From: Escherichia coli
Lineage (GTDB): Bacteria; Pseudomonadota; Gammaproteobacteria; Enterobacterales; Enterobacteriaceae
DNA length: 64,000 nt
Assembly: GCF_030384885.1 (NCBI RefSeq)
Contig: NZ_CP128615.1
Reading direction: 5' to 3' (one strand)
Made by a program: the position numbers and the translations under genes. This document shows, piece by piece, positions 1 to 23,590 of the stretch. The notes below the pieces were generated by a model. The model had not been told where the DNA came from. It made no database searches and saw only the letters and a program-made list of their open reading frames with translations. The stretch's first letter is position 1. The number at the start of each line of letters is the position of its first letter.

Positions 1-2
1 AG

Positions 3-1565
3 ATGCCTCTGATCACGCGGCTTATGCTGCAAAACTTTAAAAAGTTTCCGGAACTGGACCTGCGCTTCACTCATGACCGTAACATTCTGGTCGGGGATAA
101 TGAGTCCGGGAAAAGCACGATTCTGCTGGCCCTTGACCTTGTGCTGAGCGACAGCCGGCACCGGGTCGAGGCATTGGGTGTGGAATCGCTCCTGTCCCAG
201 TCAGCAGTCAGGCAGTTTCAGGAAGGTGAGCGCCGCGCCGATCGGTTACCCGTGCTGACAGCTGATGTTTTCCTGAGTAATGGGGGAGATCCTGACCTGA
301 ACGGCAGGCAAAATCTGGCGGGTATCGATGCGGATGGTCTCAGAATGCGCATTGCACCCATGACGGAGGAATACGGTCAGGATATACATCATGTCCTGCA
401 GCAGGATCCCGATAATTTTCCCTATGAATACTATTCCGTGCGGTTCAGCACCTTCTCCGGGGGGCATTTTGCCGGCTTCAGACGCTATCTGCGCCATCTG
501 CTGTTAGACAGTGCACGCATCGATAACGAGCACGCCGCACAGGAATATACGCGCACAGTTTACAGCGTCAATGTGCCGGTAGCCGATCGGTACCGGCTTG
601 AAAACAGTTACCGGCAACAGAAAATGCACTTCTGCACCCGGCATCTGTCAGCCATAAACGACACGCTGGATACGTATCAGTTTGGCGTGCGTTCCGGTGC
701 TAAATCAGGTCTTGAGGCGAATCTGGACATTACCGAGGACGGTATTTCCATTCGTCACCGTGGAAAAGGAAGGCAGTGCTTCATCAAAACAGAGTTTGCA
801 CTGCAGCGGCATCAGCAGCAGGGAGAGCTCCACGCACTGTTGCTTGAGGAGCCGGAGAATCATCTCAGCCATGTCAGTATGAAGAGGCTGGTTAATCAGC
901 TTGCAACTGAACGGCAGACGCAGGTGTTTATTGCCACACACAGCAGCCATATCTCATCCCGCCTCGATCTGCGTAAGGCAATCCTCCTCGGGTCTGCCCG
1001 ACCGGTACTGATGAATGAACTTTCCGCTGAGACTGCCGCCTTCTTCATGAAAGCACCGGACAATAATGTGCTGGAATTTGCGCTGGCCAGACGTGTGCTG
1101 CTCGTGGAGGGGGATGCTGAGTTTATTCTGATCGAGGCCTTTTATCGCCGCCTGTATGGCAGGTCGCCGGAGGATGACGGGGTTCACATCATCGCTATCG
1201 GCGGAACGAGTTTCCGTCGTTATCTTGAACTGGCCCGTCTTCTGGAAAATCGCGTCGCGGCCCTTCGTGATAATGACGGCAACTATCAGCAAAACTGCGA
1301 TGAACGCTATGCTGACGTGCTTTGTTCCCGCTCCCGGGTATTTGCTGATCGCGATAACACCCGATCCACATTTGAAATCTGCCTGTATCAGGATAACGCT
1401 GGTCTGTGTGATGCGCTTTTCCGCGGAACACGCCGGACACTCACGGTGCAGGAATACATGCTGGCCAATAAGGCAGAAGCAGCATTCCGGCTGTTACAGC
1501 TGCACGCCGAAGAGCTGACAGTACCTGATTATATTCAGGAGGCACTGGCATGGATAAGAGAGTGA
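3..1565 (+). CDS. OLD-family ABC-type ATPase with C-terminal Toprim-like nuclease domain (GajA-like / class 1 OLD)
   Basis: 520-aa ORF; Walker A GDNESGKST, Walker B LLEEPE, C-terminal VLLVEGDAEF...RDNDGN Toprim-like motifs; stop overlaps start of downstream helicase gene. Confidence 0.75.
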   Translation: MPLITRLMLQNFKKFPELDLRFTHDRNILVGDNESGKSTILLALDLVLSDSRHRVEALGVESLLSQSAVRQFQEGERRADRLPVLTADVFLSNGGDPDLNGRQNLAGIDADGLRMRIAPMTEEYGQDIHHVLQQDPDNFPYEYYSVRFSTFSGGHFAGFRRYLRHLLLDSARIDNEHAAQEYTRTVYSVNVPVADRYRLENSYRQQKMHFCTRHLSAINDTLDTYQFGVRSGAKSGLEANLDITEDGISIRHRGKGRQCFIKTEFALQRHQQQGELHALLLEEPENHLSHVSMKRLVNQLATERQTQVFIATHSSHISSRLDLRKAILLGSARPVLMNELSAETAAFFMKAPDNNVLEFALARRVLLVEGDAEFILIEAFYRRLYGRSPEDDGVHIIAIGGTSFRRYLELARLLENRVAALRDNDGNYQQNCDERYADVLCSRSRVFADRDNTRSTFEICLYQDNAGLCDALFRGTRRTLTVQEYMLANKAEAAFRLLQLHAEELTVPDYIQEALAWIRE

Positions 1566-2572
1566 TATTTGCGGTTGCCGGCTCGGGCAAGACCACGCTG
1601 CTGATACAGCGGTTGAGTGAGGACCGGCGGACGCTGATCCTGACCTTCACCGTGAATAATGAAGCGCATCTCCGGGCGCAGATTATCAGACGTTTTGGCT
1701 TTATCCCGGACGGGATCAGGGTGATGACCTGGTTTGAGTTTCTGCACGGTTTTTGCTTCAGGCCTTTCCTGCAGGAGCAGCTGGCATCGCGTGGGCTGAG
1801 CTTCGACCAGCCCCCACCCAGAATACCGCGCACGAATGCCCGGCATTATCAGGATCCCGCCGGACGGCTGTATCACCGGAGGCTCGCACACTTACTCACA
1901 GCCCGGGGGCTGCTGCCAGATATCCGTACCCGGCTTGCCCGTTACTACGATGAACTGCTTGTCGATGAAGTCCAGGACTTTGCCGGACATGACTTTAATT
2001 TTCTGCTGGAGCTCTGCCGCGCGGAAATCACTGTGCTCTGTTGCGGCGATTTTTATCAACATACCTTTGATACAAGCCATGACGGCAACGTTAATTCAAC
2101 GCTGCACGATGACATTACGCGATATGAGGCCCGCTTCGACGCAGCAGGTTTCACGGTTGACCGGGACACGCTCAACCGGACATGGCGTTGCTCAGCTTCA
2201 GTGTGCGAGTTTATCACCGGACAACTGAACATCCGTATCGCTGCCCATGGGATACATGCCACCCTGATTGAAACGATCACAGATGCAGAGCGCACAGCCA
2301 CCCTGCACGCCGATAATACGGTGATTAAGCTCTTCTATCGTGAACATCACCGTTACGGCTGCTATTCCATGAACTGGGGCGTCAGTAAAGGGCTCGACCA
2401 CTTTCAGGATGTCTGCATTGTGATGGGATCTTCCCACTGGAAGCTTCTGACCCGTCAGGAACTGGCAGCCCTTCCACCGTCGTCCCGTAACAGGCTGTAC
2501 GTGGCATGCTCACGGGCGCGCGGCAACATTTATTTTGTTCCCGAAATTCATCTGCGCCGATTCCGGAACTGA
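1550..2572 (+). CDS. compact UvrD/Rep-like SF1 helicase (GajB-like partner of the OLD nuclease)
   Basis: 340-aa ORF; AGSGKTT Walker A, DEVQDF motif II, YVACSRARG C-terminal motif; 16-bp overlap with upstream gene. Confidence 0.7.
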   Translation: MDKRVIFAVAGSGKTTLLIQRLSEDRRTLILTFTVNNEAHLRAQIIRRFGFIPDGIRVMTWFEFLHGFCFRPFLQEQLASRGLSFDQPPPRIPRTNARHYQDPAGRLYHRRLAHLLTARGLLPDIRTRLARYYDELLVDEVQDFAGHDFNFLLELCRAEITVLCCGDFYQHTFDTSHDGNVNSTLHDDITRYEARFDAAGFTVDRDTLNRTWRCSASVCEFITGQLNIRIAAHGIHATLIETITDAERTATLHADNTVIKLFYREHHRYGCYSMNWGVSKGLDHFQDVCIVMGSSHWKLLTRQELAALPPSSRNRLYVACSRARGNIYFVPEIHLRRFRN

Positions 2573-2699
2573 GTCAGCTGCTTCTCAGTCGGGCACAATT
2601 CAGAAATAAAGCTGTATGGCCAACGATGTCACTTCAGGCTGGAAAAGTGCGGATCCGGTTTTGCCTTTTTTCGGATCTGAGCGGGAAAAGTGAGAAACC

Positions 2700-2861
2700 A
2701 ACATAGGTGTAACATATCCATATGCCGGGCATCTGCATAGGCAAAGCATACGCATATACCTACCATCTGCATATGTAACACCTATACAAGCCGGGCTTGC
2801 AGGCATATACTTCACCTATGCGGGAATACTCCCTGGCACACTCAGCATATGAGGAAAAACC
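2700..2861 (+). promoter_or_regulatory. putative vagCD promoter/operator (inverted repeat ATAGGTGT/ACACCTAT, CATCTGCATA direct repeats)
   Basis: repeat-rich region immediately upstream of vagC; a related repeat-rich region precedes the second vagC copy at 58860-59026. Confidence 0.4.
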
Positions 2862-3092
2862 ATGCGCACAGTTTCGATATTTAAAAACGGCAATAACCGC
2901 GCCATCCGTCTGCCCCGGGACCTGGATTTTGATGGCGTCAGCGAGCTGGAGATCGTCCGGGAAGGGGACAGCATCATTCTGCGTCCCGTCCGGCCGACCT
3001 GGGGCTCGTTCGCGCAGCTGGACAGGGCCGATCCGGACTTTATGGCGGAGCGTGAGGATGTGGTCAGCGATGAAGGACGCTTTGAGCCATGA
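2862..3092 (+). CDS. vagC: VagC/VapB-type antitoxin (AbrB/SpoVT fold)
   Basis: 76-aa ORF MRTVSIFKNGNNRAIRLPRDL...; 4-bp overlap with downstream PIN toxin. Confidence 0.9.
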   Translation: MRTVSIFKNGNNRAIRLPRDLDFDGVSELEIVREGDSIILRPVRPTWGSFAQLDRADPDFMAEREDVVSDEGRFEP

Positions 3093-3505
3093 AGAAAACC
3101 TGGATGCTCGACACCAACATCTGCTCGTTCATCATGCGCGAGCAGCCGGCAGCGGTGCTGAAGCGCCTGGAGCAGGCGGTGCTGCGCGGTGATCGCATTG
3201 TGGTCTCGGCCGTGACGTATGCCGAGATGCGCTTCGGCGCCACCGGCCCGAAGGCCTCGCCGCGCCATATTCAGCTGGTCGACGCGTTCTGCGCGCGCCT
3301 CGATGCCGTCCTGCCCTGGGACCGCGCCGCGGTGGACGCCACGACGGACATCCGGGTGGCGCTGCGCCTAGCCGGGACGCCGATCGGCCCGAATGACACG
3401 GCCATTGCCGGGCACGCCATCGCGGCGGGCGCCATCCTGGTGACGAACAATGTGAGAGAGTTTGCGCGGGTCCCGGGCCTGGTGCTGGAAGACTGGGTGA
3501 AATAA
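3089..3505 (+). CDS. vagD: VagD/VapC PIN-domain toxin
   Basis: 138-aa ORF MKKTWMLDTNICSFIM... with PIN acidic residues; overlaps vagC stop. Confidence 0.9.
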   Translation: MKKTWMLDTNICSFIMREQPAAVLKRLEQAVLRGDRIVVSAVTYAEMRFGATGPKASPRHIQLVDAFCARLDAVLPWDRAAVDATTDIRVALRLAGTPIGPNDTAIAGHAIAAGAILVTNNVREFARVPGLVLEDWVK

Positions 3506-3547
3506 TCCCGTAATAATTTCCGTGACGGAGACGACAGACATGAATGG

Positions 3548-3608
3548 GCTTTGTTGAATAAATCGAACTTTTGCTGAGTTGAAGGATCAGATCACGCATC
3601 CTCCCGAC
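3548..3608 (+). mobile_element. IS903-like (IS5 family) terminal fragment including IR GGCTTTGTTGAATAAATC
   Basis: matches the first ~61 bp of the intact IS903-like copy at 23903; homology stops where the IS3-family element begins. Confidence 0.65.
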
Positions 3609-3708
3609 TGGATTTGCCCCTATATTTCCAGACACCTGTTATCACTTAATGGAGTGACCCCGAGCCCGTAGACAAATCTGCCCTATAGTTTGAGCATAGG
3701 AGGAGTCT

Positions 3709-3993
3709 ATGGGCACATCACGTTTTACCCCTGAATTTAAGGAAGAGGCCGTCCGCCAGATCACCGAGCGGGGCTATTCTATTGCTGAAGTATCTGAACG
3801 GCTCGGCGTGTCGGCGCACAGCCTATATAAATGGCTCCGGGCTGTTAAGCCTGACAACAGTGGACAGCAGGCACAGGATTTACTGGATGCCAGAACAGAA
3901 ATTCTCAGGCTGAAAGCACAGCTTAAACGCACTGAGGAAGAGCGGGATATTCTGAAAAAGGCAGCGCGGTACTTTGCAAGGGAGCCCGACTGA
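3709..3993 (+). CDS. IS3-family transposase OrfA (HTH)
   Basis: 94-aa ORF with HTH (YSIAEVSERLGVSAHSLYKW) and leucine-zipper-like C-terminus. Confidence 0.85.
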   Translation: MGTSRFTPEFKEEAVRQITERGYSIAEVSERLGVSAHSLYKWLRAVKPDNSGQQAQDLLDARTEILRLKAQLKRTEEERDILKKAARYFAREPD

Positions 3994-4567
3994 AGTATCG
4001 CTTTATCAACGATCACCGTGAAATCTGGTCGATCGTTACAATGTGTCGGGTCCTTAAGGTTGCCCGTGCCGGATTTTATGTCTGGCTCCATAACCCTGTA
4101 TCTGCCGGAGAAAAGGATAACCAGCGACTGCTGGAACTCATCCGCGACTCCTATACGCTGAGTGGTGGAGTTTACGGTTATCGCAGGGTTCATGGCGATC
4201 TTCGCGAAATTGGCGAAGTGTGCAGCAGAAACCGGGTTGCCAAAATCATGAGGAAAAACAGGATTCAGGCTATACATGGTTATAAAGTGCCACGCGGGAG
4301 CCGGGGACGACCGTCACTGATAGCGCCTAATCACGTGCGGCGTGAATTTACTGTAGTGAAGCCCAATCAGGTGTGGGTCACCGACATCACCTACATCCGC
4401 ACCTGGCAGGGCTGGCTGTACCTGGCAGTGGTTATCGATCTTTTTGCCCGTAATGTGGTGGGCTGGTCGATGAAGCCGACACTGTCGCGCGAGCTGGCAC
4501 TGGATGCGCTGCTGATGGCGGTCTGGCGACGTAAACCTGAAGAAAACGTCATTGTGCACAGCGATAG

Positions 4568-5941
4568 TAATAATGCCGATGTCAGTCTTTACCACCACTT
4601 AGTTTGCCGTTTAACCAGATTGGTGTGATTACTGATGCAGTGAAGACCTTCCCGCATCCTGACTCACACAGCGATCGACCTTTTGTGTCCTGCCCTGGAC
4701 CCGTCGGTTGCCGGAAGCGCCTTCATGCGAGGCATCTCCTCACCGATGCGCGTGACTCAAGAAGGGCCTGACGGCTTGTCTCGTTACTGTCCTGTCCGGG
4801 TTATCTGTCTGGAGATTCAACTCTGTTTCCTCACAGGAGCTCTGTCATGGTTGATAAAGTTACCGAAGCTGCCGTTGTGGGTGGCGTGGATACACATAAA
4901 GATTTGCACGTTGCCGCTGTCGTAGATCAGAACAATAAAGTCCTTGGGACTCAGTATTTCTCCACAACACGACAAGGTTACCGGCAGATGCTGGCATGGA
5001 TGACCTCGTTTGGGACATTAAAGCGAATTGGTGTTGAGTGCACAGGTACCTATGGTTCCGGTTTGCTTCGTTATTTTCAGAACGCCGGGTTAGAAGTTCT
5101 TGAGGTGACTGCTCCAGACCGGATGGAGCGACGCAAACGGGGTAAAAGTGACACAATTGATGCTGAATGTGCCGCTCATGCAGCATTCTCAGGCATCAGG
5201 ACAGTTACTCCCAAAACGCGTGATGGCATGATTGAGTCCCTGCGGGTATTAAAAACTTGCCGAAAAACAGCAATATCAGCCCGCAGAGTCGCTCTCCAGA
5301 TTATCCATTCAAATATTATCTCTGCCCCGGATGAATTACGTGAACAGCTCAGAAATATGACGCGCATGCAGCTCATCAGGACCCTGGGTTCCTGGAGACC
5401 TGATGCCAGTGAATACCGCAATGTAACCAACGTTTATCGCATTTCATTAAAGTCCCTTGCCCGACGCTATCTCGAGTTACATGACGAAATCGCTGATCTG
5501 GATGTCATGATTGCGGCAATTGTCGACGAGTTGGCACCTGAGCTGATTAAACGTAATGCTATCGGATACGAAAGCGCTTCACAGTTGCTGATCACTGCCG
5601 GAGACAATCCTCAACGGTTAAGATCAGAATCAGGATTTGCGGCACTGTGTGGTGTCAGCCCGGTCCCCGTTTCTTCTGGAAAAACGAACCGTTACCGACT
5701 TAATCGTGGTGGAGATCGTGCTGCAAATAGTGCACTTCACATCATCGCCATCGGACGCTTACGAACTGACGCAAAAACAAAGGAATATGTCGCCAGGCGT
5801 GTAGCCGAAGGACATACAAAAATGGAAGCGATACGCTGTCTAAAGCGATATATCTCCCGCGAAGTTTACACGTTACTGCGCAATCAAAACAGGCGGATCA
5901 ACAGTATCCCGATAACAGCTTGACTCTTAGAAGGGCGTCCA
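4568..5941 (+). mobile_element. IS110-family insertion sequence (about 1374 bp, no obvious terminal IRs)
   Basis: precisely interrupts the IS3 orfB codon run HSD|RGSQY (2-bp junction ambiguity); carries a DEDD-type transposase gene. Confidence 0.75.
4847..5923 (+). CDS. IS110-family (DEDD) transposase
   Basis: 358-aa ORF; N-terminal GVDTHKDLHVAAV, C-terminal ...NRGGDRAANSALHIIAIGRLR... typical of IS110 family. Confidence 0.85.
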   Translation: MVDKVTEAAVVGGVDTHKDLHVAAVVDQNNKVLGTQYFSTTRQGYRQMLAWMTSFGTLKRIGVECTGTYGSGLLRYFQNAGLEVLEVTAPDRMERRKRGKSDTIDAECAAHAAFSGIRTVTPKTRDGMIESLRVLKTCRKTAISARRVALQIIHSNIISAPDELREQLRNMTRMQLIRTLGSWRPDASEYRNVTNVYRISLKSLARRYLELHDEIADLDVMIAAIVDELAPELIKRNAIGYESASQLLITAGDNPQRLRSESGFAALCGVSPVPVSSGKTNRYRLNRGGDRAANSALHIIAIGRLRTDAKTKEYVARRVAEGHTKMEAIRCLKRYISREVYTLLRNQNRRINSIPITA

Positions 5942-6325
5942 GGGCAGTCAGTATGGCAGTGATGACTGGCAGCGGTTCTGCCGGGCCAATAATCTGGTAC
6001 CGAGCATGAGCCGTCGCGGCAACTGCTGGGATAATGCAGTGGCAGAATCGTTCTTCAGTTCACTCAAAAAAGAGCGCATCAGGAAGCGGATATACAAAAC
6101 CCGGGACATGGCCCGGGCGGATATTTTCGATTATATTGAAGTGTTCTACAACCGGGCCCGGCGCCACAGTCATCTCGGCGGCGTCAGCCCGGAGGCCTTC
6201 GAAAAGGCCTCGCAGTGAGGACAGAAACTGTCTACCGGAGCGTGGTCACTCCACATTTAAAGAAACGAGCTTTGGTAAACATACCTGTAATGACTCCATA
6301 AAATGGCGCGTCAAACGACACCTAA

Positions 6326-8401
6326 TCAATTAACCCCAAGCGCCTTAAACACGGCATCGACGGGGTCTGCATAAAAGCTGATCTGGAATTTTGAGAACAA
6401 CTCAGCAGGAACCGTTGGAATATCTGAGGCTGAGGCCATTGGGAGCAAAATACGCTTTGCGCCACTGTCCATAGCTAACTGAAGACTGCCTGCAAGATCT
6501 TGAACAGGATTGACGACACCACCTAAAGTCATCTCACCCAAAACAACCATCTGCTCTTGAATCGGTCGGTTCATCAGAATTGAACAGAACGCAATTAATG
6601 CAGCGAGCGATGACTTTGTACTTGGCCCCGTATTGTGGAGCTCAACAACATGGAGGTGATACTCATGATCAGAAAACTTCGCCGACGCACTGATTCTATT
6701 CAGGTTACCTTTGAAATAATCAAAGCCAACACGCACAGCTTCTTTCGCTGCGGTATTCGAACCAAGGCCAGACACTGAGTGTTTACCAGAACCAGCCATC
6801 ATCTGGGTTTCATAGCGATATAACCCAAGCTGCCCAGTGCTTCCCTGAGTAACCAAGTGCACGACACCAGCGCGAGGTAAGCCCTCAGGAATTAGCTTGC
6901 TGCCACCTTGTTCCGGTACATTGATGAAGAATTCTTCTAATGAATCGTTATCGATGTAGCTAAAGTGCACATCAAAAAATTCCATTCCGCCAAGCTTTTT
7001 CAATTGCTCTTTGACTCTACGTCTAGTTTCCAGCGCATAGGTCAGGCAGGCTCTTACATCATCTTTTGTGTACTGTGCGTCGGGGTGTAGTAGCTTTAAC
7101 AAGCCCGAAACAGTTCTGCGTACAGCAATTACATCACGCTGATTAAGGTTATTACCGAGTTTGAAGAACTTATCGATAGCATCCGCAAAACTTCTTTTGC
7201 GCATTTCACGCATGTATTCAGCAAGATAGTCTGTGATTAATCCGTAACTATTGGTGAAAAACTCAGGACGCATCTTCGGTATTTCCCATCCAGGAATATA
7301 GGAATGGAAACGGTCAAAAAAAGCAGTGTCAATCATGGCTTCAGGAAAAGGTGCCAACAGATGACTGGTCTTCACCAGTGTCTCAACGCTTTGATTGATG
7401 TTACCGACGAATACCATGGAAGCCTTCGCTTCGATTGAATCACGACCACGGGCAAAAGACCCTGACGCCATATAATCTTTCATTATTTGGACGCCGTCTT
7501 TGTCTTTAAAGTTAATACCCGCTACTTCATCAAAGGCGACAACATCCCACATTCCGACCAACCCAACTTGGCGCGAGCTCATGTTATAGAACAAGTTCGC
7601 CACAGTTGTTTGTCCGCCCGAGACAAGCAATGAGTTTGGTGAGCACTCCTTGTAGACATGGCTTTTACCTGTCCCTCTTGGTCCGAGCTCACAAACGTTG
7701 TAGTTGTTTTCAACGAATGGGATCATACGAGTGATAAGATGCCATTTCACCCGATGCTCTAAGTTGGTTGGCTCCATACCCACGGAACGAAGCAACACAT
7801 CCATCCACTGATCGGTACTAAAATGTCTTCTGGTTGAAAACACCTCATCCATGTTCATGGACGGCATTTGTATCGGTTTTAAACTCATAATGGAGAAAGG
7901 TGATGTCTTCTGACCTTCCTCAAAGAAATACTGGACGGTAATAATGCACCAGATGCCGCCAGTTAATAATTTTTCGTTGTCTTGTACTATTTTGGTCGGT
8001 ACAAGGGCATCCTTGATACCCAGGTTCGACAACGCAGCTTCATAGACGTCTTTTTTCTGGTTGAGCTTAACGCTTACTTTGTCGATGATTTTAAACGTGC
8101 CGCGTTCACGGATCAGTGACTTCACTTTCTCCGCTTCATCTGGTCGGACATAGTTCTCAGCCAAGATTTTTTTTACATTATCAAGGCCTTGCATTACAAC
8201 TTCGTCGTCATCGGACGCACAATACATGCCTAGTAAATACTCAAGCACATAGACAGGGACGTTAGCGCCTTCTTTCAATTGCTTTGTCAGATCTTTTCGA
8301 ACGACACGGCCTTTAAAATATTGGTTGAGCAATGCGTCTAAATCGGCGCTTTGCATCTGATTTTTTTCGTCTTTATGATCTTGTGAAAAATCAGTTGTCA
8401 T
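6326..8401 (-). CDS. brxL: BREX BrxL (Lon-like protease domain protein)
   Basis: 691-aa ORF, last gene of the BREX operon; P-loop GPRGTGKSH and Lon-like C-terminus. Confidence 0.85.
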   Translation of the reverse strand: MTTDFSQDHKDEKNQMQSADLDALLNQYFKGRVVRKDLTKQLKEGANVPVYVLEYLLGMYCASDDDEVVMQGLDNVKKILAENYVRPDEAEKVKSLIRERGTFKIIDKVSVKLNQKKDVYEAALSNLGIKDALVPTKIVQDNEKLLTGGIWCIITVQYFFEEGQKTSPFSIMSLKPIQMPSMNMDEVFSTRRHFSTDQWMDVLLRSVGMEPTNLEHRVKWHLITRMIPFVENNYNVCELGPRGTGKSHVYKECSPNSLLVSGGQTTVANLFYNMSSRQVGLVGMWDVVAFDEVAGINFKDKDGVQIMKDYMASGSFARGRDSIEAKASMVFVGNINQSVETLVKTSHLLAPFPEAMIDTAFFDRFHSYIPGWEIPKMRPEFFTNSYGLITDYLAEYMREMRKRSFADAIDKFFKLGNNLNQRDVIAVRRTVSGLLKLLHPDAQYTKDDVRACLTYALETRRRVKEQLKKLGGMEFFDVHFSYIDNDSLEEFFINVPEQGGSKLIPEGLPRAGVVHLVTQGSTGQLGLYRYETQMMAGSGKHSVSGLGSNTAAKEAVRVGFDYFKGNLNRISASAKFSDHEYHLHVVELHNTGPSTKSSLAALIAFCSILMNRPIQEQMVVLGEMTLGGVVNPVQDLAGSLQLAMDSGAKRILLPMASASDIPTVPAELFSKFQISFYADPVDAVFKALGVN

Positions 8402-8417
8402 GTTTCACCTCAGCGCC

Positions 8418-14758: not shown

Positions 14759-14773
14759 ATGATCTTGCGCCTC

Positions 14774-16537
14774 TTATTCTGTCTCTACGCTGTTTGCGGG
14801 TTGTAATGCGGTTCTAATGCGGGCAAGCAGTGTTTCCTGACGCTCGCGGTAAAAGTCCATAAACTGGTTTAGTTGTTCAGGTAATGATGTTATGGCTTGC
14901 GATTGCAGATGTGCTTGTCTTGCATTCACATCAGGCCACTGCTGCGCATACCATTCATGGGGCATTTTTTGCCGCTTCTGGTTGTTGATTGTCCCTTCCA
15001 ACAGTTGAAGGTTTGGCAGCTTGTTAGATGCCTCGATGAGTTCATCTAGCTGTTCAGCTGGGACACCAACTTTTGCAAGCTTGTTACGCGTAAACAAACC
15101 TTTGGGGTAAATGTGGTCCACATGAAAGTGTCGTGAAAAATCGAATCCTGGGAACAACAAAGTCAACAAGGCAAAGGTACGCGGATTACCATAATCCAAC
15201 TGCGCTAGTTCACTAATTTCCTCTGGGTCAAAGCGCAACGATTTACCACGCTGTTGCATGGTCGCTTCAATTTTCGCTAGCGGGAAACCCGTATCACCCG
15301 ATTGTTTAATGTCTGAGCGAAGCATAGTAAGCAGGGTATCCAAACCACTTCCCCAGATGCCTGACGCTTTCAACAACGACCTAATGAGCCAGTTTCTGAT
15401 GCATTCTCTATCGACCGCATATTCAACCCTAGAAAGGTAGCTTGCCGTTAACTTTCGGTGGTGCAGGTAATAGGCTAACGGGAGGATGGCACTTGTTGCT
15501 CTGAGGTTTTGTGCATTAAAACCAAAACTTGCCAGCAACTGCATTGAGAGCAATAACGCATCACGAATTGGCGTCCAGTTCTTTTCGAGAATCGCCATAT
15601 TTTCCTTGTTAAAGTTCTCAACCTTAAAGCCCACGCTACCGATGTCAGAGAGCATTAAGCCTGCTTTTAAAACGAGATCTTTTGATACGTTGAATCCATC
15701 ACCAACACGGTTCATCTCATCCACTAAGGCATGAATTTCTTCACGGGCATCTAACGAGCTCCACTGCGCTACGGCTATTGAAAGTAGTAAGTCTGAGTAG
15801 GACAAAGTAGTGCCGCCGCTATTCATGCGGATAAAGATATTCAGAACACGTTCAAGGCTCTGATCACTTTCTTCGTAAAACGAAATCTTATCTTTGTCAT
15901 GGATAGTTCGATACAAGTGACGAAGAGTTGAGCGAGCCTCTTTGCGTTGCTCCGAGCTCAACCTAGCATCATCAGCAACTTCATCGATAAGTGCATCTTC
16001 TTCCTCTTCCATGATCCGGCCTACACGGAACCAGTATTGTTCAGATGCATCCAAAGAGGCTTTATCGTCGGTTAGGAACTCAAAGTCATACATCGACCCA
16101 GTTTCTAAGTCGGGCTGGCTTAACAGATTTAAGTGAAGCCTGCGCACTGGGAAGGCGTCATCATTGCTCCACCATTTACCTGTCAGCTTCCACGCAAATG
16201 AGCCGCGTAGGCCGATGTTCAAAGCGGTAATCCGCTGCTGTCCATCTAGGACGGCAATGAACTCACGCTCTGGTAACTGAGTGACATTTTCACAATGGTA
16301 GTTATCTCGCTCATGGTAATGCTGCATGAACTGATAAAACTGATAGCTATGCCGGTTCTCTGGTTTTATCTTCCAGAATAGAAAGGTCCCAAACGGGTAA
16401 CCTTGCAACAGGCTATCAAATAGACGACAGATCTGTTCTGGTCGCCATACAAACTCTCGCTGGATGGCCGGTAACAGGTATTCCTGCTCAGCAACCTTGT
16501 CGAGTAATGATCTTATTGTTCCACCCGCTTGATACAT
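14774..16537 (-). CDS. GmrSD-family type IV restriction endonuclease (DUF262 + DUF1524; BrxU-like) embedded in BREX locus
   Basis: 587-aa ORF; N-terminal IQREFVW and DGQQR (DUF262/ParB-like) motifs, C-terminal HxxH-type HFHVDHIYPK (DUF1524 His-Me finger). Confidence 0.8.
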   Translation of the reverse strand: MYQAGGTIRSLLDKVAEQEYLLPAIQREFVWRPEQICRLFDSLLQGYPFGTFLFWKIKPENRHSYQFYQFMQHYHERDNYHCENVTQLPEREFIAVLDGQQRITALNIGLRGSFAWKLTGKWWSNDDAFPVRRLHLNLLSQPDLETGSMYDFEFLTDDKASLDASEQYWFRVGRIMEEEEDALIDEVADDARLSSEQRKEARSTLRHLYRTIHDKDKISFYEESDQSLERVLNIFIRMNSGGTTLSYSDLLLSIAVAQWSSLDAREEIHALVDEMNRVGDGFNVSKDLVLKAGLMLSDIGSVGFKVENFNKENMAILEKNWTPIRDALLLSMQLLASFGFNAQNLRATSAILPLAYYLHHRKLTASYLSRVEYAVDRECIRNWLIRSLLKASGIWGSGLDTLLTMLRSDIKQSGDTGFPLAKIEATMQQRGKSLRFDPEEISELAQLDYGNPRTFALLTLLFPGFDFSRHFHVDHIYPKGLFTRNKLAKVGVPAEQLDELIEASNKLPNLQLLEGTINNQKRQKMPHEWYAQQWPDVNARQAHLQSQAITSLPEQLNQFMDFYRERQETLLARIRTALQPANSVETE

Positions 16538-16553
16538 AGTTATCCGTTGCCTC

Positions 16554-19500
16554 TTACTTAATTCTTACTCGGTCGCCAGCTTTGACCGCAGCAATCAGCT
16601 GCTCTCTTAAAGCGGCAAGATAGGCATCAACTTCGGCTTCACTTTCAATGAATCCGGTTGTTACTGACTTAGCCATGGCATCGGTTGAGTTAATCGTTAC
16701 GGTACGTTTTGCAACCGGCTGTGGCTGCACTGGTTCAGAGGCTGGCTCAGGTGCTGGAGCTGCTTTACCGGCTTTCGCTGCTTCCTCTTCGCGTGTCTGC
16801 TGTTCGAGTTCACGACGTCTTTGCTCAGCTTCAGCTTTTTTGCGTTGATCTTCGATAAAGCCATTCAGCAACTCATAGGCTTCGTCCTCGTAACCTTCCG
16901 CTTCAGTTTGCTCACTGATAATTTGTGGTATTGAAGAGGTCGCTTCAATACGCTGTCTGCACATTTGTAACGGGCGCAGTGCTTGGTTCTGTAATTCAGA
17001 CGGTGCATGAGCTTCAGCTAGCGCTTCTTTTACACGTCCGATGCGCAGATCAACACGCTCTAAGGCATGAGTGCGTTTTTCTTCAACCAATGTTGAGTTA
17101 ATTTTTGCCACCTGCTCGATAAGCGGATTAATGTGGCGCAGCTGCTCATACGGCGAGGGCATATTGTAAATGCGTTCTAATTCAGTGAGCGCTTTTAATG
17201 CTTCACTGTCTTTTTCTAACGCAGGTCTATTGGCCTTAAACTTCTCGTTCAATGCGCCAGCAAGGGCTTGCCAAGTTTGAAATTGGCTATTGTAGAAGTC
17301 ATCAAGATCCTCAAAGTCCTCAGCAAACTCTTCAAGGGCATCAGCGTTTTCTAAGAATCGGGTGATAAGAGCGAAGCTTGAAGTTTGCTCAAGAATACCC
17401 GCGACCAATGCAAGACCATCGTCAATTTGAGATTTACCTGGGAAATGGCCTGTCTGTGACTTGGTTCTGAATGATTTAAGCTCTTCATTCCAAGCCAGTA
17501 ATTCATCGCGCACTAATTCGTAGAGCTCCTTTTCACCAGAGCCGGTAAAGGTTTTTGAAAAGATCTCTTTAACAAGACCAGCAGCCTTTTTGATTTGGCG
17601 CTCGTCATGTTGCCTGATTTTATGTACACGGATCTCACCGCGTTTACGCACGCTGGTAAACGGCTCGTAAGCTTTTTTCAACGCCAGATCTGTGCCCTGG
17701 GTACTAAAAGATAACTTTCCAGCCAAGCCCAGCCTTGCAGTGAGCAATAAGATTTCATTGTCTGGCCAGCCATACGGGCGCTTGCCGAAGTGGGCAACGA
17801 TGTCACGTAAGTAAACAGGCTCATTACGCTCGACTTTTAGCGTTACGTACTGCTCAACCTCACGCGTAGCTTCTGGGTTACATTCATCCGCTTGAAGATC
17901 CAGTCCAATCTGAGCAATATCATCAGCAACAAGTACGGCCTGTAGCTCACGCAAAACTTCACCAGGCGTCGCCTTGAGCATGTTCAATTTAGCGAAGGTG
18001 TTTTCGATAACGTATTTGTATGCTTCTTCGACGATGGCACTTGGCGTTGCTGATTTCTTCGGTAGTTTTGTGCCGATAGCGTAAACGTCAGCCTCTGCAA
18101 ACAAAGCTTCAAAATCCGTTCTTAAGCGTTTTTCACGCTCAATATTTTCCATCTGCTTTTCGCGGAGAAGGTGTTCTTGCTCTGGTCGCTGTCCTGAATT
18201 TTGTTTTAAGAATCGGTCAGTTTTTATAAAGGTTGTCAGGTCATCCCAAAGACGTTTATGTTCGCCCAGCTTGACGAGCACGCACCCATCAGCCTCAAGC
18301 GTATGATTGATGCAGGCTTGATCGTGGGAGTAATTTTCAAAGTGCGAATCCAAAGGTGAAATGACTTTAATGACTAGATCTTCCAGCGTGGTGCCATCTT
18401 TTGGATGACCATTGCAAAAACGGCTCACCGCAAAGTCTTGCTTATTAATCGGGTATCGATAGGCACGATTACCTTTCAAAATACCGTCAAATACGATTGC
18501 TGAAAGCTTGTTAGAGACCTCTGACATTTCAACGTCAGTGTGGCGGATCTCGTTTTCAATCTCTTTTTCTTCGTTGGTCAGGAAGATAAATTCATCACCA
18601 TTACGCGCAATCAGCAATTGGCGTTCAAGACGATTCAAGCTCTCTTCAATTTGTTTACGCAGCGCAATTTTATCTGCATCGATTCGATCAATTGACAGCG
18701 TCACAAGGTTGTCTAGTGTGCTTTTGACAACGTCCACATAACGGATCAAGAAAAGAGTTTTTAGAATCTTGCCATCGAATTCTGTTAAGGAATCCAACTC
18801 ACAGGCTTGGTCAATCGTTCGCTTAACCGCTGGCTCCAAAAAGCTTTCAATCGGTGCATAGAAACTGTAAAACGGGATTAACACATCAAGGCCAGAGTCC
18901 TTCATCTGTTTTGCAGCTGATTGGAAAGCATCAAGTAATGAACGCTCACCCATGGCTAAGTGCTTACCCGTCGCGCCTTTTGTTCGAATTGACTCAAACA
19001 CTTTTTGAACCAGCGTGTAGTGGTAAGGCACAAACGGATAGTTGTCCACGAAAGACGGAGCGTCGGTGTAGCCCTTTAGAGACGCAGTTGTCGTTTTATC
19101 AAATGTCAGCTGGTTACGAAGAATGTCGCCCTTTTCAGCAAACACATCGATGAGGTGTGTACGAGCTTCTTCCGTTTTGGACAACAAACGCTTTTGAATA
19201 ACTTCCGAGGTATTCGAGCTCGACAGCTGCAAGCGGGTACTAAAACGCCCTTGAATTTTAGAGAAGTCCTCGCCATCGCGCTTATCCATACCACCAATGG
19301 CAGCATCAATGTCTGCCTGAGAGGTAACAACGACCCAAGCTCTGCCACCACAATATGTGCCAAGATCTTCAGTAATGGTCTGAAGCTTCAACATCATTTG
19401 TGTGTTCTTACCGATAAACTGACCGACTTCATCGACTAAGAAAAGAAGGTTACGATCTCCAGTTCGATCTAAGTATTCATTAACCCACTTACAGAAGTTT

Positions 19501-20231
19501 CGGATATCTAGCGGGAAATTGTTTTCAACCTGTTCAACCCACGCTTTGGCAGACTCTAATGATTGCTCACTGGCATGAGCGAGTGCTTCTGAAAGTTCGT
19601 CTCGATAGAAGTCATAGGCGTCACGCTCCTTTTCCCAAGTTGATTGAGTCAACTCAGCAAATTTGTCCTTGAAAGACATGTATTGATTACGCTTATCAAG
19701 CTCGCGTTCTAAATGCGCAATGTGAGGAAAATCAGCGCAGTATCCTACACGCTCATTAAAGACTTTGAGGAAGACCTTAAGAATGGCATTTTCTCGGTCA
19801 TCCGTATTGGCTCGTGAATCGATGTTAAAAAGAATAACATCAGTGTCTTTGGTAACAGCGTTTTGGATATCGGCCAACAGCATGGCATCGTTGATTTTGT
19901 CTTTAAAAAACTCAAATGCTTGACGGCCTTGGCCATCCTTTTCGACAGACTTATTTTCGAGGAGGTAAGACAAAATTTTCAGGAAGTGAGACTTACCCGA
20001 ACCAAAGAAGCCAGAGATCCACACACCAATTTTTCCTGACATTGATGCGCCACTTTGCGTCACAGATGGAACGTAAGCCTCAAAGAAAGCGCGAAAATGT
20101 CGATCTAGCTCTCGGGTTACAACATACTCATCAAGTTCGACATACACACTGTCATTGTCTTTCTGTTCCGCTTTAACAACGCCGTTAATATCACGCGTCA
20201 ACTTCTTGGAAAAAATCTGTTCAATTTTCAT
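16554..20231 (-). CDS. brxC: BREX BrxC (large P-loop ATPase)
   Basis: 1225-aa ORF; Walker A GFFGSGKSH; position downstream of brxB. Confidence 0.9.
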   Translation of the reverse strand: MKIEQIFSKKLTRDINGVVKAEQKDNDSVYVELDEYVVTRELDRHFRAFFEAYVPSVTQSGASMSGKIGVWISGFFGSGKSHFLKILSYLLENKSVEKDGQGRQAFEFFKDKINDAMLLADIQNAVTKDTDVILFNIDSRANTDDRENAILKVFLKVFNERVGYCADFPHIAHLERELDKRNQYMSFKDKFAELTQSTWEKERDAYDFYRDELSEALAHASEQSLESAKAWVEQVENNFPLDIRNFCKWVNEYLDRTGDRNLLFLVDEVGQFIGKNTQMMLKLQTITEDLGTYCGGRAWVVVTSQADIDAAIGGMDKRDGEDFSKIQGRFSTRLQLSSSNTSEVIQKRLLSKTEEARTHLIDVFAEKGDILRNQLTFDKTTTASLKGYTDAPSFVDNYPFVPYHYTLVQKVFESIRTKGATGKHLAMGERSLLDAFQSAAKQMKDSGLDVLIPFYSFYAPIESFLEPAVKRTIDQACELDSLTEFDGKILKTLFLIRYVDVVKSTLDNLVTLSIDRIDADKIALRKQIEESLNRLERQLLIARNGDEFIFLTNEEKEIENEIRHTDVEMSEVSNKLSAIVFDGILKGNRAYRYPINKQDFAVSRFCNGHPKDGTTLEDLVIKVISPLDSHFENYSHDQACINHTLEADGCVLVKLGEHKRLWDDLTTFIKTDRFLKQNSGQRPEQEHLLREKQMENIEREKRLRTDFEALFAEADVYAIGTKLPKKSATPSAIVEEAYKYVIENTFAKLNMLKATPGEVLRELQAVLVADDIAQIGLDLQADECNPEATREVEQYVTLKVERNEPVYLRDIVAHFGKRPYGWPDNEILLLTARLGLAGKLSFSTQGTDLALKKAYEPFTSVRKRGEIRVHKIRQHDERQIKKAAGLVKEIFSKTFTGSGEKELYELVRDELLAWNEELKSFRTKSQTGHFPGKSQIDDGLALVAGILEQTSSFALITRFLENADALEEFAEDFEDLDDFYNSQFQTWQALAGALNEKFKANRPALEKDSEALKALTELERIYNMPSPYEQLRHINPLIEQVAKINSTLVEEKRTHALERVDLRIGRVKEALAEAHAPSELQNQALRPLQMCRQRIEATSSIPQIISEQTEAEGYEDEAYELLNGFIEDQRKKAEAEQRRRELEQQTREEEAAKAGKAAPAPEPASEPVQPQPVAKRTVTINSTDAMAKSVTTGFIESEAEVDAYLAALREQLIAAVKAGDRVRIK

Positions 20232-20249
20232 TCGGGAGGCTCCCTGCTC

Positions 20250-20843
20250 TTAATTTTTTTTACCGTCTTCAGGCACAAGCTTGAAGGCGCGATAGTAGTT
20301 TTTAGATTCGATCATGCCGAAAGGATGCAAATCCCTTCCGCTATATTCACCCGGATAGAAAAGCACTAATGGCGTGCTACCCATAACGTCTTGCAGAGCA
20401 CTAAGTAACTCATGTCCTCGGATAAGAGGCCACGCACTGCCTAAGCCTGACAGCAACACAAACTCAAGTTCTGATGGCTTATATTTGTCCGCGATATACC
20501 TTGCCACTTTCTCTTGGCTCAGAGGCCCGGCTAGTGTTTTTCGAAGGCCATCAACACCGACTTGCAATTCACGCTGGCAAGCTCGGTCGAAAAGGCCTCG
20601 CTCCTCAAGCATATCTATCAAGACTTCAAAAATATTGAGATGGACAAAGCGGTAACCACGCTTGTTGAGTTTTTCGTCAACGTGCTTAATGTGCTCTCGT
20701 ACAAGCAGTTCATACTTGGCTGGATAGTCAAATACCCAAAATCCAATTTCATTGCCCAAGCCATCGTTTTTCAAAAACTTAGGGCTTTCAATTCGTTCCA
20801 GTATCAGATCAAGCCTGGTCTGAAGAGCCTTCATATTGTGCAC
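20250..20843 (-). CDS. brxB: BREX BrxB (DUF1788)
   Basis: 197-aa ORF immediately upstream of brxC, overlapping brxA; size and position typical. Confidence 0.8.
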   Translation of the reverse strand: MHNMKALQTRLDLILERIESPKFLKNDGLGNEIGFWVFDYPAKYELLVREHIKHVDEKLNKRGYRFVHLNIFEVLIDMLEERGLFDRACQRELQVGVDGLRKTLAGPLSQEKVARYIADKYKPSELEFVLLSGLGSAWPLIRGHELLSALQDVMGSTPLVLFYPGEYSGRDLHPFGMIESKNYYRAFKLVPEDGKKN

Positions 20844-21430
20844 TCCATTACCTCAATCAAATCTTCCCGGCCCAGACGAACTAACCAGTCTTTAACTTCT
20901 GGCATTAGGTAAACAGGTTGTATTTTCTTTGTCCTGCTATCACTCAGGTAGCCACTATCAACCAGTGCCTTAATTGCGTTGTTACCCATTTTTTTGACAG
21001 TTGAGTCAGAAAAACCGCCAAGCTCAGCATATGCCCGCACTCTCGTGTCATAAAACTCAGACCATGCATCAGCGGTTAAAGAGGGTTTATAGGTGCGACG
21101 AGCTTCGGCTAAGGTAAGTCGCATAAAATAAGCGACAACCGGAGAATGAATGAGTAATGACATCATCAGCATTTGGACATAGGCACGTTCACTCGCGGCT
21201 AAAAGATCAGTCATAAACTCATCACCCAGGCCTTCAATACGCCAACGGATTGTTCTGGCATAACGAATAGCCGTCTGACCGGATTTTTTCTGAAGAACAT
21301 TTTGCTCAACGATCAGCGACTTCCACTCATCTTCTGGAAGTTTTTTCAATAGCGATTCTGCGATTATTCTAGATTCAGTTATCAATAAACTGCCTCCGAT
21401 AAGATCGCCTAAATATTCTTTTATATTCAT
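20831..21430 (-). CDS. brxA: BREX BrxA (DUF1819)
   Basis: 199-aa ORF first structural gene of operon; size and position typical. Confidence 0.8.
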   Translation of the reverse strand: MNIKEYLGDLIGGSLLITESRIIAESLLKKLPEDEWKSLIVEQNVLQKKSGQTAIRYARTIRWRIEGLGDEFMTDLLAASERAYVQMLMMSLLIHSPVVAYFMRLTLAEARRTYKPSLTADAWSEFYDTRVRAYAELGGFSDSTVKKMGNNAIKALVDSGYLSDSRTKKIQPVYLMPEVKDWLVRLGREDLIEVMECTI

Positions 21431-21439
21431 AAATTCATC

Positions 21440-22366
21440 TCACGATTCGCTATATCCAGGAGCGAGTGCAGCATTGTCAACGCCGTATAGTGCTTCTGGA
21501 TTTTTAAGTGCTAAATGGAACTCTCGCCCATTGCTCTTACAATTCTTTGAACAATCGATATTCCATAAACGCAGTAAATATCCAGCGAACGCAGCTCTTA
21601 TCTCTACACGCAACCTATTGTTTTCCATTGCGTAGTCCATCGATACAGCTTCTGGATGTGCTAGTTTTGGATGAGGTATCAGCTCTAGCTCAACGATTCG
21701 GTTCCATTGCTTATCCCACTGAAGAGTCTCAACTTCGTCGTTAACCTCATCCTCTAACAACTCAACTTCACTTATTCTGGTTAAAACAAAATCCCTAAAT
21801 TCTCTAAGCTTTCTATCGAATGCTCGGACATGCCATCTCAAGCCATTGTCAATCAGGGTATGAGGAACTATTTGCCTGCTCCCATGACCACTCGACAATG
21901 AGGTGTACTCAATATTAATCACAGCGCGCTTATGTATGGCTTCACTAATAGCCGCTACAACTTCCAATTTCGGCTTATTGAGATGGAATGGTGCTTCACA
22001 AGCCATAGGTGGCCTGGCCTTGCCAAGAAAGCCATCACCGAACCCTTGGCTTATCGTCGCAAGAGTTCGAACAACGTCATAATCAAACAACGGCTGGAAT
22101 GCGCTCGTCTTCAAGTGCACTCTGCGCTTTTCGTCATACATAACGTTGTTAGGAGCCAACTCTTTGTACCGCGCAAAATCTTGTGTTGCCACAGACGGCG
22201 CTACGCTAAATCGCTCGGTTAAATAACTACGCCCAGCTTCACCTTTAAATAACAAAGTGAAATCAATATGAGCGAGTCGTTCTCTCTGTGCTTGGCTAAG
22301 CTCTTCAAGTCCAGTGTTGTCTTGCACTGTCAGCCTCTCAATCCATCTGGGACAAGCCCTAATCAT
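21440..22366 (-). CDS. brxR: BrxR-type WYL-domain transcriptional regulator
   Basis: 308-aa ORF upstream of brxA; WYL-like core (RWHVRAFDRKLREFRDF); true start may be an internal Met. Confidence 0.75.
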   Translation of the reverse strand: MIRACPRWIERLTVQDNTGLEELSQAQRERLAHIDFTLLFKGEAGRSYLTERFSVAPSVATQDFARYKELAPNNVMYDEKRRVHLKTSAFQPLFDYDVVRTLATISQGFGDGFLGKARPPMACEAPFHLNKPKLEVVAAISEAIHKRAVINIEYTSLSSGHGSRQIVPHTLIDNGLRWHVRAFDRKLREFRDFVLTRISEVELLEDEVNDEVETLQWDKQWNRIVELELIPHPKLAHPEAVSMDYAMENNRLRVEIRAAFAGYLLRLWNIDCSKNCKSNGREFHLALKNPEALYGVDNAALAPGYSES

Positions 22367-22685
22367 TTAAAACTAGGAAGCCATCGATTGAATGCCATCA
22401 AGCAACCTACTTTTTTTCATTAGGTATCATAGTATCAACAAGTCGTCTTGTTGGCTATAAAAATTGGCTTGACGTTGTTCGAATGTTTCTTTTCTGGCCT
22501 TGATAGAAGCTCACGCTGGAATGCCAACTGACGCAATTCATTCTCTCGAACACGCCTAGCAACTTCTGCCTGGGCTGGTAGCTGATCTTGACCCTCCATC
22601 TCCGAACAGCTTTTGTATCTTAAGTTAACGATGTCCGCTGCCGCCGGTATTCCCTCGGGGAGTGATATCCCAGCGCGCTGTGCGG

Positions 22686-23383: not shown

Positions 23384-23590
23384 GTTGGAGTCATTACCTT
23401 CTTTGCCGCCGGACATTGTCCGGCGCAACACCAAACCGGTCTGGCGGGCTGAGCCAATCCCGCAGGCAAATTCAGCCCTTACCGGATGGCTCAGCCCCCT
23501 ACTCATTGGAATTGGATATTCAACTTTCAGGGGCTACTGCGCCAGACTTCAGTCTTTAAAGTGATTGACTTAGCGCCTGGCACACTCAAT

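Follow-up and report, generated by a model that had tools for sequence, protein, structure and literature searches.

How three defence-type gene modules came to lie within 22 kb on one resistance plasmid is the question raised by a stretch of 64,000 nucleotides of Escherichia coli DNA (contig NZ_CP128615.1, assembly GCF_030384885.1), referred to below as the window. The modules are a pair of genes for an OLD-family nuclease and a UvrD-like helicase (OLD/UvrD), the toxin-antitoxin genes vagCD and a complete type I bacteriophage exclusion (BREX) operon. All three had been named in an initial annotation made from the letters of the sequence, and profile searches confirmed them. The same annotation held that insertion sequences (IS) had assembled the modules into an island, which is true of one side only: older IS scars flank BREX and the vagCD-BREX junction is IS-shaped, but the junction between OLD/UvrD and vagCD is a reciprocal crossover in a 28-bp core where no IS is present. 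From the gene identities, the synteny, the reciprocal junctions and the conservation of the site, the window is probably a cointegrate in which an IncFIB/FIC parent similar to p14EC033d and a complete 56-kb IncR plasmid were joined by reciprocal exchange at rfsF-type sites. The OLD/UvrD-vagCD-BREX "island" is the meeting place of the two parent plasmids, and its modules are adjacent through the fusion, at rfsF, of an entire IncR plasmid with an IncF plasmid and not through gathering by IS.

The outer parts of the window are those of the IncF parent. In BLAST comparisons p14EC033d (IncFIB/FIC) was 99.9% identical to window 1-2660 and 58820-64000, and the two stretches are contiguous in that plasmid (positions 4415/4416), so that the IncF backbone is continuous across an insert with the UvrD-like gene on one side and a second vapB on the other. 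The right flank corresponds to p14EC033d positions 4416-9596, again at 99.9% identity and onward to 64000. This 5-kb match identifies the IncF side; look-alikes of the right junction occur at 95-97% identity in Klebsiella plasmids, and promoter alleles alone are therefore not diagnostic of it. The inner part is an IncR plasmid. Every segment of pEFER (55,150 bp), the plasmid of E. fergusonii ATCC 35469, maps by BLAST into window 2652-59349 in circularly permuted order, with start and end in the vagC region. The free IncR plasmid NZ_CP024857.1 of E. coli AR_0011, which has the same pglX allele as the window, covers 52,467 of the 56,168 bp of the insert (93%) at 98% identity or more. The IncR backbone, defined together with rfsF-resD by Oliva et al. 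2022 (PMC9412624), is present with all its parts: repB (54593-55459, minus strand, by BLAST to pEFER), 10.4 copies of the 36-bp iteron (54127-54502, by tandem repeat search), parAB (51553-53732) and umuDC (49388-51471), both by BLAST to pEFER and open reading frames, resD-rfsF and vagCD, of which resD is frameshifted.

Parent A, the IncFIB/FIC plasmid, would have supplied window 1-2650 and 58847-64000, in the order vapBC, OLD, UvrD-like gene, rfsF-like site and second vapB. Parent B, an IncR plasmid like pEFER or that of AR_0011, would have supplied window 2652-58819, comprising a backbone of repB, parAB, umuDC, resD, rfsF and vagCD and, between vagCD and umuDC, a defence island of the pEFER type and resistance transposons.

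The two junctions were mapped by alignment of six sequences and by mismatch counts against each parent. Each falls in a hybrid rfsF-like core of 28 bp with a dif-like 11-6-11 layout and the consensus RGATCCGnnnn-N6-TTTTCGGATCT; neither core was part of the initial annotation, which also lacked the brxU and brxR genes described below. The core of the left junction (2651-2678, plus strand; GGATCCGGTTT-TGCCTT-TTTTCGGATCT) has the left arm of IncF and the centre and right arm of IncR, and its reciprocal at the right junction (58819-58846, plus strand; AGATCCGGAAC-TGGTGG-TTTTCGGATCT) has the left arm of IncR and the centre and right arm of IncF. At the left junction there are 0 mismatches in 44 positions to IncF on the left of the centre and 0 in 523 to IncR on the right; at the right junction the counts are 0 in 71 to IncR on the left and 0 in 520 to IncF on the right. 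Each flank shows 51-58 differences from the wrong parent. The parental switch falls between the left arm and the 6-bp centre, and the exchange is exactly reciprocal. ResD-family tyrosine recombinases normally resolve plasmid dimers; from the crossover pattern we infer the signature of such an enzyme working between two molecules. A single reciprocal exchange between two 28-bp rfsF-type cores of 11-6-11 layout would have fused the parents, and a first-strand exchange at the boundary of left arm and centre was probably used, as proposed from the difference between the parental centres.

In a self-comparison of the window, 58836-59349 proved to be another vagC locus, with 89.8% identity to 2668-3184, and this repeat offers two other routes to the same junctions. 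RecA-dependent recombination within the ~530 bp of vagC/vapB homology, with the position of the crossover at the core being coincidental, is an unlikely route. The loci do share ~90% identity over 518 bp, including ~320 bp of near-identical vagC coding sequence, and IncR cointegrates are usually formed by homologous or IS26-mediated recombination (PMC12310702); the exchange lies nonetheless at the extreme left edge of the homology, beyond which the two left flanks, differing at 51 of 71 positions, are unrelated, and both diagnostic single-nucleotide differences in vagC/vagD stay with their own right-hand parent. Unrelated plasmids also share this boundary, with other partners beside it: 17 genomes have pifC or vagCD there, and pLA-109 has ars. 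Far less credible still is an assembly artefact, in which two separate plasmids were joined in silico via the repeated vagC region. The ~0.5-kb repeat is indeed present twice (2668-3184 and 58836-59349) and the junction is unique among public records, but with copies only 89.8% identical an assembler would switch in the longest identical stretch and not in a core sharing only its right arm, and both reciprocal junctions are present and internally consistent. The ~320 bp of near-identical vagC coding sequence was left unused by the crossover, which argues against RecA-driven recombination and misassembly alike. The second locus comprises an IncF-type vapB and a truncated vapC (59027-59349, plus strand, vapB at 59027-59257), after which the IncF backbone runs onward to 64000. 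Its vapB is intact and its vapC ends after ~32 codons, in p14EC033d as well, so that the antitoxin gene next to the rfsF-like site is an orphan.

The IncR resD gene, encoding the tyrosine recombinase, is a pseudogene in the window (56540-57315, minus strand), frameshifted by two inserted bases, TG, at 56710-56711. Apart from these it shows no difference from the pEFER gene over 777 nt, and the ResD protein of AR_0011 is the same as that of pEFER. The frameshifted product ends after about residue 201, before the region of the catalytic tyrosine, and the frameshift may prevent resolution of the cointegrate and so lock the fusion.

Several points weigh against an exchange carried out by ResD. The parental centres, TGCCTT and TGGTGG, differ at 4 of 6 positions, and many tyrosine recombinases do not tolerate mismatched central regions; unequal centres would require exchange of one strand and then resolution of the Holliday junction via replication, as at cer. 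The frameshifted resD of the window must have been intact at the time of fusion, or else a recombinase of the IncF plasmid, encoded outside the window, would have acted. The TG insertion itself could be a sequencing error. Action of ResD on the cores of the window is putative, being read from the recombinant junctions, and the rfsF core of plasmid F was assigned by its position and motif, not by a published core sequence.

The junction between OLD/UvrD and the IncR vagC was present in 0 of 72,556 PLSDB plasmids and in 0 of 5,426 complete E. coli RefSeq genomes, and the best full-length matches to a query spanning it were the IncF parent, at 87.6-92% identity in both collections. The initial annotation had proposed a comparison with related plasmids for co-occurrence of the modules; pairwise links, vagCD with BREX and vapBC with OLD/UvrD, are common, but the triple is absent from all these records. 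Since the triple-module junction recurs in neither collection, the stack is a one-off cointegrate, a singular recent event. Stacking of defences on resistance plasmids can accordingly come about in one step, without gradual accretion driven by IS, and a single molecule here combines antibiotic resistance and two replicons with three or four systems of phage defence or maintenance. For surveys of defence islands, cointegrate junctions at rfsF are worth checking before selection for clustering is deduced.

The cores of the window can be compared with the rfsF/ResD system of plasmid F. The same 11-6-11 motif, 28 bp long, occurs in F at 45922-45949, between pifC and ccdAB-resD, and coincides with the annotated rfsF position, rfsF sites having been placed at the start of the RepFIA region at nt 45922 of F (PMC4398462). 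The site has the make-up of an rfsF-type site, inverted arms around a centre beside an operon with a resD-family recombinase gene. As in F and in IncI1 plasmids, where gene sets switch at rfsF (PMC8004404), the resD-family operon is on the left-arm side and gene sets switch at the site. There are two differences from F: the event in the window is an intermolecular fusion of two replicons and not the resolution of a dimer, and the IncF partner site follows the UvrD-like gene instead of lying beside a resD gene. In IncR plasmids vagCD adjoins rfsF and foreign DNA has been found inserted just downstream of rfsF (PMC9412624). The window has the same backbone as those plasmids with "locus A" (PMC9412624; reviewed in PMC12310702), in which foreign DNA joined exactly at rfsF is known, and differs from them in that an entire IncF plasmid is joined at rfsF, with both reciprocal junctions visible and resD frameshifted. 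The mechanism of the juxtaposition, exchange mediated by rfsF, is already described in kind.

The distribution of the core was examined by a pattern scan of 100,044 species genomes (one genome per species), followed by tblastn of the neighbouring genes. Some 39 cores, counted from record titles, were located in Enterobacterales. A resD homologue lies 1-2.9 kb to the left of 16 of these, in fixed orientation and behind ccdAB or two hypothetical genes, and in 16 genomes, as also in F and pEFER, ~360-400 bp separate the core from a hypA-hypB-resD or ccdAB-resD operon downstream of it. On the right of the Enterobacterales cores, vagCD starts at 158-270 bp in 10 cases, its place being taken by pifC in 7. 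Left and right modules occur in every combination, and the 6 bp of the centre follow the module on the right. Two of them are natural reassortants at the core: in Kluyvera intermedia the IncR hypA-hypB-resD operon (100% identical) is joined to pifC (locus L078), and in an Escherichia sp. the F-type ccdAB-resD (99%) is joined to vagCD (L081). Outside this order, four Nostoc contigs (L019, L070, L076 and L093) contain a near-palindromic core (AGATCCGAAAA/ATAA-N6-TTTTCGGATCT) at ~0.6-1.3 kb from a gene whose product is 26-28% identical to ResD, in four Nostoc genomes. The position of the Nostoc core beside a ResD-like gene suggests that the pairing of recombinase and site is old. It is possible, though only as a tentative generalization, that rfsF-type cores and ResD-family recombinases form a general system of module exchange in enterobacterial plasmids, comparable with the pdif modules of Acinetobacter, which would shuffle vagCD, pifC, ars and vapBC-OLD-UvrD, fuse replicons and stack defences, the resD frameshift having fixed the fusion in the present case.

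In some plasmids cores are found on both sides of the OLD/UvrD genes. Leclercia and Citrobacter plasmids have two copies of the core in direct repeat, 3.63 kb apart, with vapBC-OLD-UvrD enclosed by them (7022 and 10651 in L004; 4223 and 7852 in L005), and in pLA-109 the second core is followed by an ars operon and not by vapBC. By analogy this arrangement recalls the pdif modules of Acinetobacter, cassettes flanked by XerC/D sites, which are short, dif-like and 11-6-11 in layout, and often containing toxin-antitoxin genes. The likeness is limited to some plasmids, and the differences are that another member of the recombinase family and another host group are involved and that the second core is absent in four contexts (L010, L011, L012 and L051). 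A cassette bounded by two cores was accordingly rejected as the universal form of vapBC-OLD-UvrD: the upstream core was identified in 4 of 8 contexts, with 2 more degenerate copies, and the downstream core in 5 of 8. Two Enterobacter loci lack the latter, as do pEC958 and pKPC2_020143, in both of which the UvrD-like gene is closely followed by an IS1. A PLSDB search with the whole vapBC-OLD-UvrD cassette was uninformative on boundaries because its two vapBC copies cross-match.

The OLD/UvrD pair itself comes from the IncF parent. The first gene (3-1565, plus strand) encodes an OLD-family ABC-ATPase/TOPRIM nuclease of 520 amino acids that matches the PADLOC profile of GajA over its full length (PDLC00102, E=1.5e-101) and contains the Pfam domains AAA_15 and OLD-like_TOPRIM, with the motifs GDNESGKST (Walker A), EEPE, VEGDAE (TOPRIM) and DND in its translation. 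The second (1550-2572, plus strand), overlapping the first by 16 bp, encodes a short UvrD-like helicase of superfamily 1 (SF1) with 340 amino acids, which matches GajB (PDLC00148, E=1.7e-47, positions 1-352 of the 369 of the profile) and presents the motifs AGSGKT, DEVQD, GDFYQ and VACSRA. Adjacent genes of the GajA and GajB types are thus present, and by these profile and motif matches the pair is classed as a Gabija-like nuclease-helicase pair. Like Gabija (Doron 2018; Cheng 2021, PMC8136825; structures 8SM3 and 8U7I), it consists of overlapping genes for an OLD ATPase-TOPRIM nuclease and an SF1 UvrD-like helicase, with intact motifs and full-length matches to both PADLOC profiles. The window proteins are however shorter (520 and 340 amino acids against ~578 and 494), and only the TOPRIM region of the first resembles GajA of B. 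cereus, its match to the solved structure being weak (E=5e-10, residues 267-409); the 340-residue helicase matched no solved structure at E<=0.01 in a sequence search of PDB. The pair is consequently only a distant relative of the experimentally tested Gabija, which tells against a firm assignment, and its antiviral role is putative. A further difference is that the plasmid subfamily of the window is nearly always preceded by vapBC. The segment (window 1-2660) is carried by 2,290 PLSDB plasmids, usually in the order vapBC-OLD-UvrD, at times followed by a second vapBC, and the vapBC is nearly always directly upstream at ~74 bp, across many plasmid types. As the window begins 2 bp before the start codon of the OLD gene, the upstream vapBC lies outside it.

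The vagCD genes are the IncR allele and comprise vagC (2862-3092, plus strand), an antitoxin of the VapB/MazE type with the Pfam domain MazE_antitoxin, and vagD (3089-3505, plus strand), a VapC-type toxin with the Pfam domain PIN. An antitoxin gene of MazE/AbrB fold and a PIN toxin gene overlapping by 4 bp make up a VapBC type II module, and the vagC region is 99.7% identical to that of pEFER. VagD aligned with structures of the tRNA(fMet)-specific endonuclease VapC (E=1.7e-29), including the acidic D, E and D positions of the PIN domain, and VagCD is an addiction module of VapBC type that on this likeness probably cleaves initiator tRNA. It is a standard backbone module of IncR plasmids next to rfsF (PMC9412624, PMC12310702), and so an addiction module of that backbone and not an independently acquired defence module. 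The initial annotation had allowed that vagCD might be a defence component, and it is improbable, though worth weighing, that beyond addiction it works with its neighbours in abortive infection. Toxin-antitoxin modules give phage defence in other cases, and vapBC is almost always directly upstream of OLD/UvrD in plasmids of many types. The copy at issue is nevertheless the IncR backbone copy, which is also found beside rfsF where neither OLD/UvrD nor BREX is present; the role published for vagCD, as cited in PMC4398462, is plasmid stability, and the defence given by the pEFER island has been ascribed to BREX and BrxU (PMC8565348). The linkage of vagCD with BREX is conserved: 13 of the 40 best plasmid matches extend from window 2652 or 2662 across BREX, and the linkage is also that of pEFER, where a transposon inserted later has split it.

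The BREX operon is collinear on the minus strand from 6326 to 21430, where the six core genes of type I BREX were matched by both PADLOC and Pfam with E from 1e-71 to 0. It comprises brxL (6326-8401), a Lon-like protein (PADLOC E=0; Pfam BrxL_N, BrxL_ATPase and Lon_C; 99.7% amino acid identity to pEFER); pglZ (8418-11090; PADLOC E=0, Pfam PglZ, 98.3% identity to pEFER); the methyltransferase gene pglX (11090-14758; PADLOC E=0); brxU (14774-16537); brxC (16554-20231; PADLOC E=0, Pfam BrxC domains); brxB (20250-20843; PADLOC and Pfam BrxB), which starts at the equivalent of window 20834 in RefSeq records of related plasmids; and brxA (20831-21430; PADLOC and Pfam BrxA). Directly upstream and on the same strand is brxR (21440-22366), encoding a repressor with the Pfam domain WYL that is 96.8% identical to BrxR of pEFER, and BrxR operators are present, as expected of this family of WYL regulators. 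R-BOX1 (22402-22428, minus strand), the operator downstream of PbrxR, has 3 mismatches to pEFER, and R-BOX2 (21610-21636) is an exact match; both were mapped from pEFER 12820-12846 and 13612-13638 (PMC9122601). BrxU is a type IV, modification-dependent restriction enzyme of the GmrSD family (Pfam GmrSD_N, E=4.6e-34; PADLOC HEC-05, E=6e-234) and is 99.5% identical to BrxU of pEFER over all 587 amino acids. Its DUF1524 domain fell below the reporting threshold of 1e-5 in the Pfam search, so that the C-terminal half, and with it the assignment of DUF262 and DUF1524 to one polypeptide, is taken from the identity to pEFER. All open reading frames of the three modules look intact.

Window 6032-22582 is ~97% identical to pEFER in megablast against PLSDB and in direct BLAST. 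The order brxR, brxA, brxB, brxC, brxU, pglX, pglZ, brxL is the same, with BrxU between brxC and pglX, on an IncR backbone with vagCD on the brxL side, and the DNA identity of ~97% holds over 6032-11858 and 13209-22582. The pEFER island gives phage resistance by two systems, a type I BREX with the motif GCTAAT and the embedded BrxU, of which both the structure and the activity have been published (Picton et al. 2021, PMC8565348), and BrxR represses PbrxR and PbrxA via the R-BOX operators (Picton et al. 2022, PMC9122601). For this 97%-identical system, N6-adenine methylation of a 6-bp non-palindromic motif that depends on PglX and exclusion of unmethylated phage have been demonstrated (PMC8565348). 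In the window BREX would likewise methylate self DNA through PglX and block unmethylated phage, BrxU would cut modified phage DNA and BrxR would repress the island.

Seven of the eight island proteins are 96.8-99.7% identical to pEFER, the exception being PglX, which is 74% identical overall. Its specificity region is replaced: identity is 24-56% in about amino acids 500-1000 and 96-100% in the rest, and pglX DNA at 11859-13208 does not align to pEFER. The central and C-terminal target-recognition module looks to have been swapped, and the BREX motif here is, judging by this divergence, probably other than GCTAAT. Such an altered specificity region would amount to natural switching of the BREX target within one plasmid lineage. 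At least 80% of the island is carried by 55 PLSDB plasmids, of which at least two, NZ_CP024857.1 and pPK8568-156kb, share the pglX allele of the window; the swapped region is the same in NZ_CP024857.1 and NZ_CP080127.1. Two further differences from pEFER concern the borders. The brxS/brxT region upstream of brxR is replaced in the window at 22582 by 103 bp and a truncated IS1, with PbrxR and R-BOX1 inside the retained 216 bp upstream of brxR; and within the ISKpn60 of pEFER lie 19.9 kb of resistance DNA (Tn3-family transposases, blaTEM-1, tet(B) and strAB), parting vagCD from BREX, which the window lacks.

The IS around BREX include those on which the initial annotation had based its model. 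On the brxL side, vagD is followed by a 62-bp IS903-group end fragment (3547-3608, plus strand; delta-IS102 in the literature), 100% identical to 23903-23964, the end of the complete IS903 copy, and one base longer than first given. Next is a 41-bp remnant (3609-3649, plus strand) which we take to be an IS2 terminus; its position fits the delta-IS2 of locus A (PMC9412624). Then comes ISEc15 (3650-6253, plus strand; inverted repeats at 3650-3674 and 6229-6253), an IS3-family element of 1230 bp with the Pfam domains HTH_Tnp_1, HTH_21 and rve, split into 3650-4565 and 5940-6253 by ISKpn60. ISKpn60 (4566-5939, plus strand) is an IS110-family element of 1374 bp, with a transposase gene at 4847-5923 (Pfam DEDD_Tnp_IS110 and Transposase_20) and limits set by the intact ISEc15 of pF18S020, which aligns to window 2652-4565 and 5940-6922. 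An IS3-family element is therefore present on this side as first described, although by its inverted repeats it ends 72 bp from the brxL stop (6326) and not ~5 bp. Both names, ISEc15 and ISKpn60, are from PMC9412624, where the array of delta-IS102, delta-IS2 and ISEc15 beside vagCD is locus A and ISEc15 is interrupted at the same nucleotide in 41 of 74 IncR plasmids. The bases flanking ISEc15, TAA to its left and CAT to its right, form no target-site duplication, and the IS2 remnant on its left is not continued by the rest of IS2 on its right. Since a duplication is lacking, the junction of its right end with the brxL side goes back to an old rearrangement associated with IS. The composite of ISEc15 and ISKpn60 was also found in the E. 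coli chromosomes NZ_CP107147.1 and NZ_CM190148.1, at 94.7% identity and ending exactly at the ISEc15 repeats, which leaves two readings, a preference of ISKpn60 for this ISEc15 sequence as its target or continuing transposition of the composite.

On the brxR side, homology to pEFER stops at 22582 and is followed by 103 bp of other sequence (22583-22685). The truncated IS1 reported there was borne out: the copy (22686-23398, plus strand) lacks ~55 bp, including one terminal repeat, relative to the full copy at 47012-47779, and keeps the other repeat at 23376-23398. A complete IS903 lies at 23902-24959 (plus strand), and beyond it, within 24962-25177, are an ISEc15-like fragment of 79 bp (93.7%) and a stretch of 136 bp that corresponds to pEFER 11319-11453, both of them inverted. 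From the rearranged fragments at 22583-22685 and 24962-25177 it follows that the brxS/brxT region of pEFER was rearranged and partly lost here. ISEc15::ISKpn60, delta-IS903, delta-IS2 and delta-IS1 are older scars inside the IncR lineage.

Stepwise gathering of three independent defence modules by IS, as first proposed, has little probability as an account of the whole stack. It is favoured by the IS on both sides of BREX (ISEc15::ISKpn60, delta-IS903 and delta-IS2 next to brxL; delta-IS1 and IS903 next to brxR), by the missing duplication of ISEc15, which points to a recombination or deletion by way of IS at the right end of the element, and by the abrupt end of pEFER homology beside the truncated IS1. 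The OLD/UvrD-vagCD junction, however, is an IS-free reciprocal crossover in the 28-bp core, and the model is already largely refuted there; vagCD belongs to the IncR backbone (PMC9412624, PMC12310702); and the order vagCD, IS scar, brxL is old and common to many IncR plasmids, including ones with a brxL remnant only, while the triple stack is in no other record searched. A composite-transposon origin of BREX was rejected, and the bracketing elements do not delimit an IS-bounded island, since they are of different families (IS3/IS110 on one side, IS1 on the other) and without duplications. Given that pF18S020 keeps only a remnant of brxL, BREX is ancestral in this IncR lineage, which the cointegrate brought next to OLD/UvrD.

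These findings are mostly known biology, with the IS-assembly interpretation only partly supported. The defence content is already known from the pEFER island or, in the case of the short Gabija-like pair, belongs by its sequence to a known kind. What is new is modest: a cointegrate with clean reciprocal junctions, a frameshift in resD, the swap of PglX specificity and a hint that two cores can enclose vapBC-OLD-UvrD.

Minor features of the IncR part were also recorded. Comparison of window 2600-7000 with AR_0011, the only stretch checked, gave no match to the group II intron gene retA (ltrA in AR_0011). The strAB genes were identified by match to the strAB region of pEFER and AR_0011, and tet(A) is presumed present from features of related plasmids. 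Window 46089-46661 contains 15.5 tandem copies of a GC-rich 37-bp unit (93% matches), an array also found in pEFER and AR_0011 and distinct from the 36-bp IncR iterons at 54127-54502.

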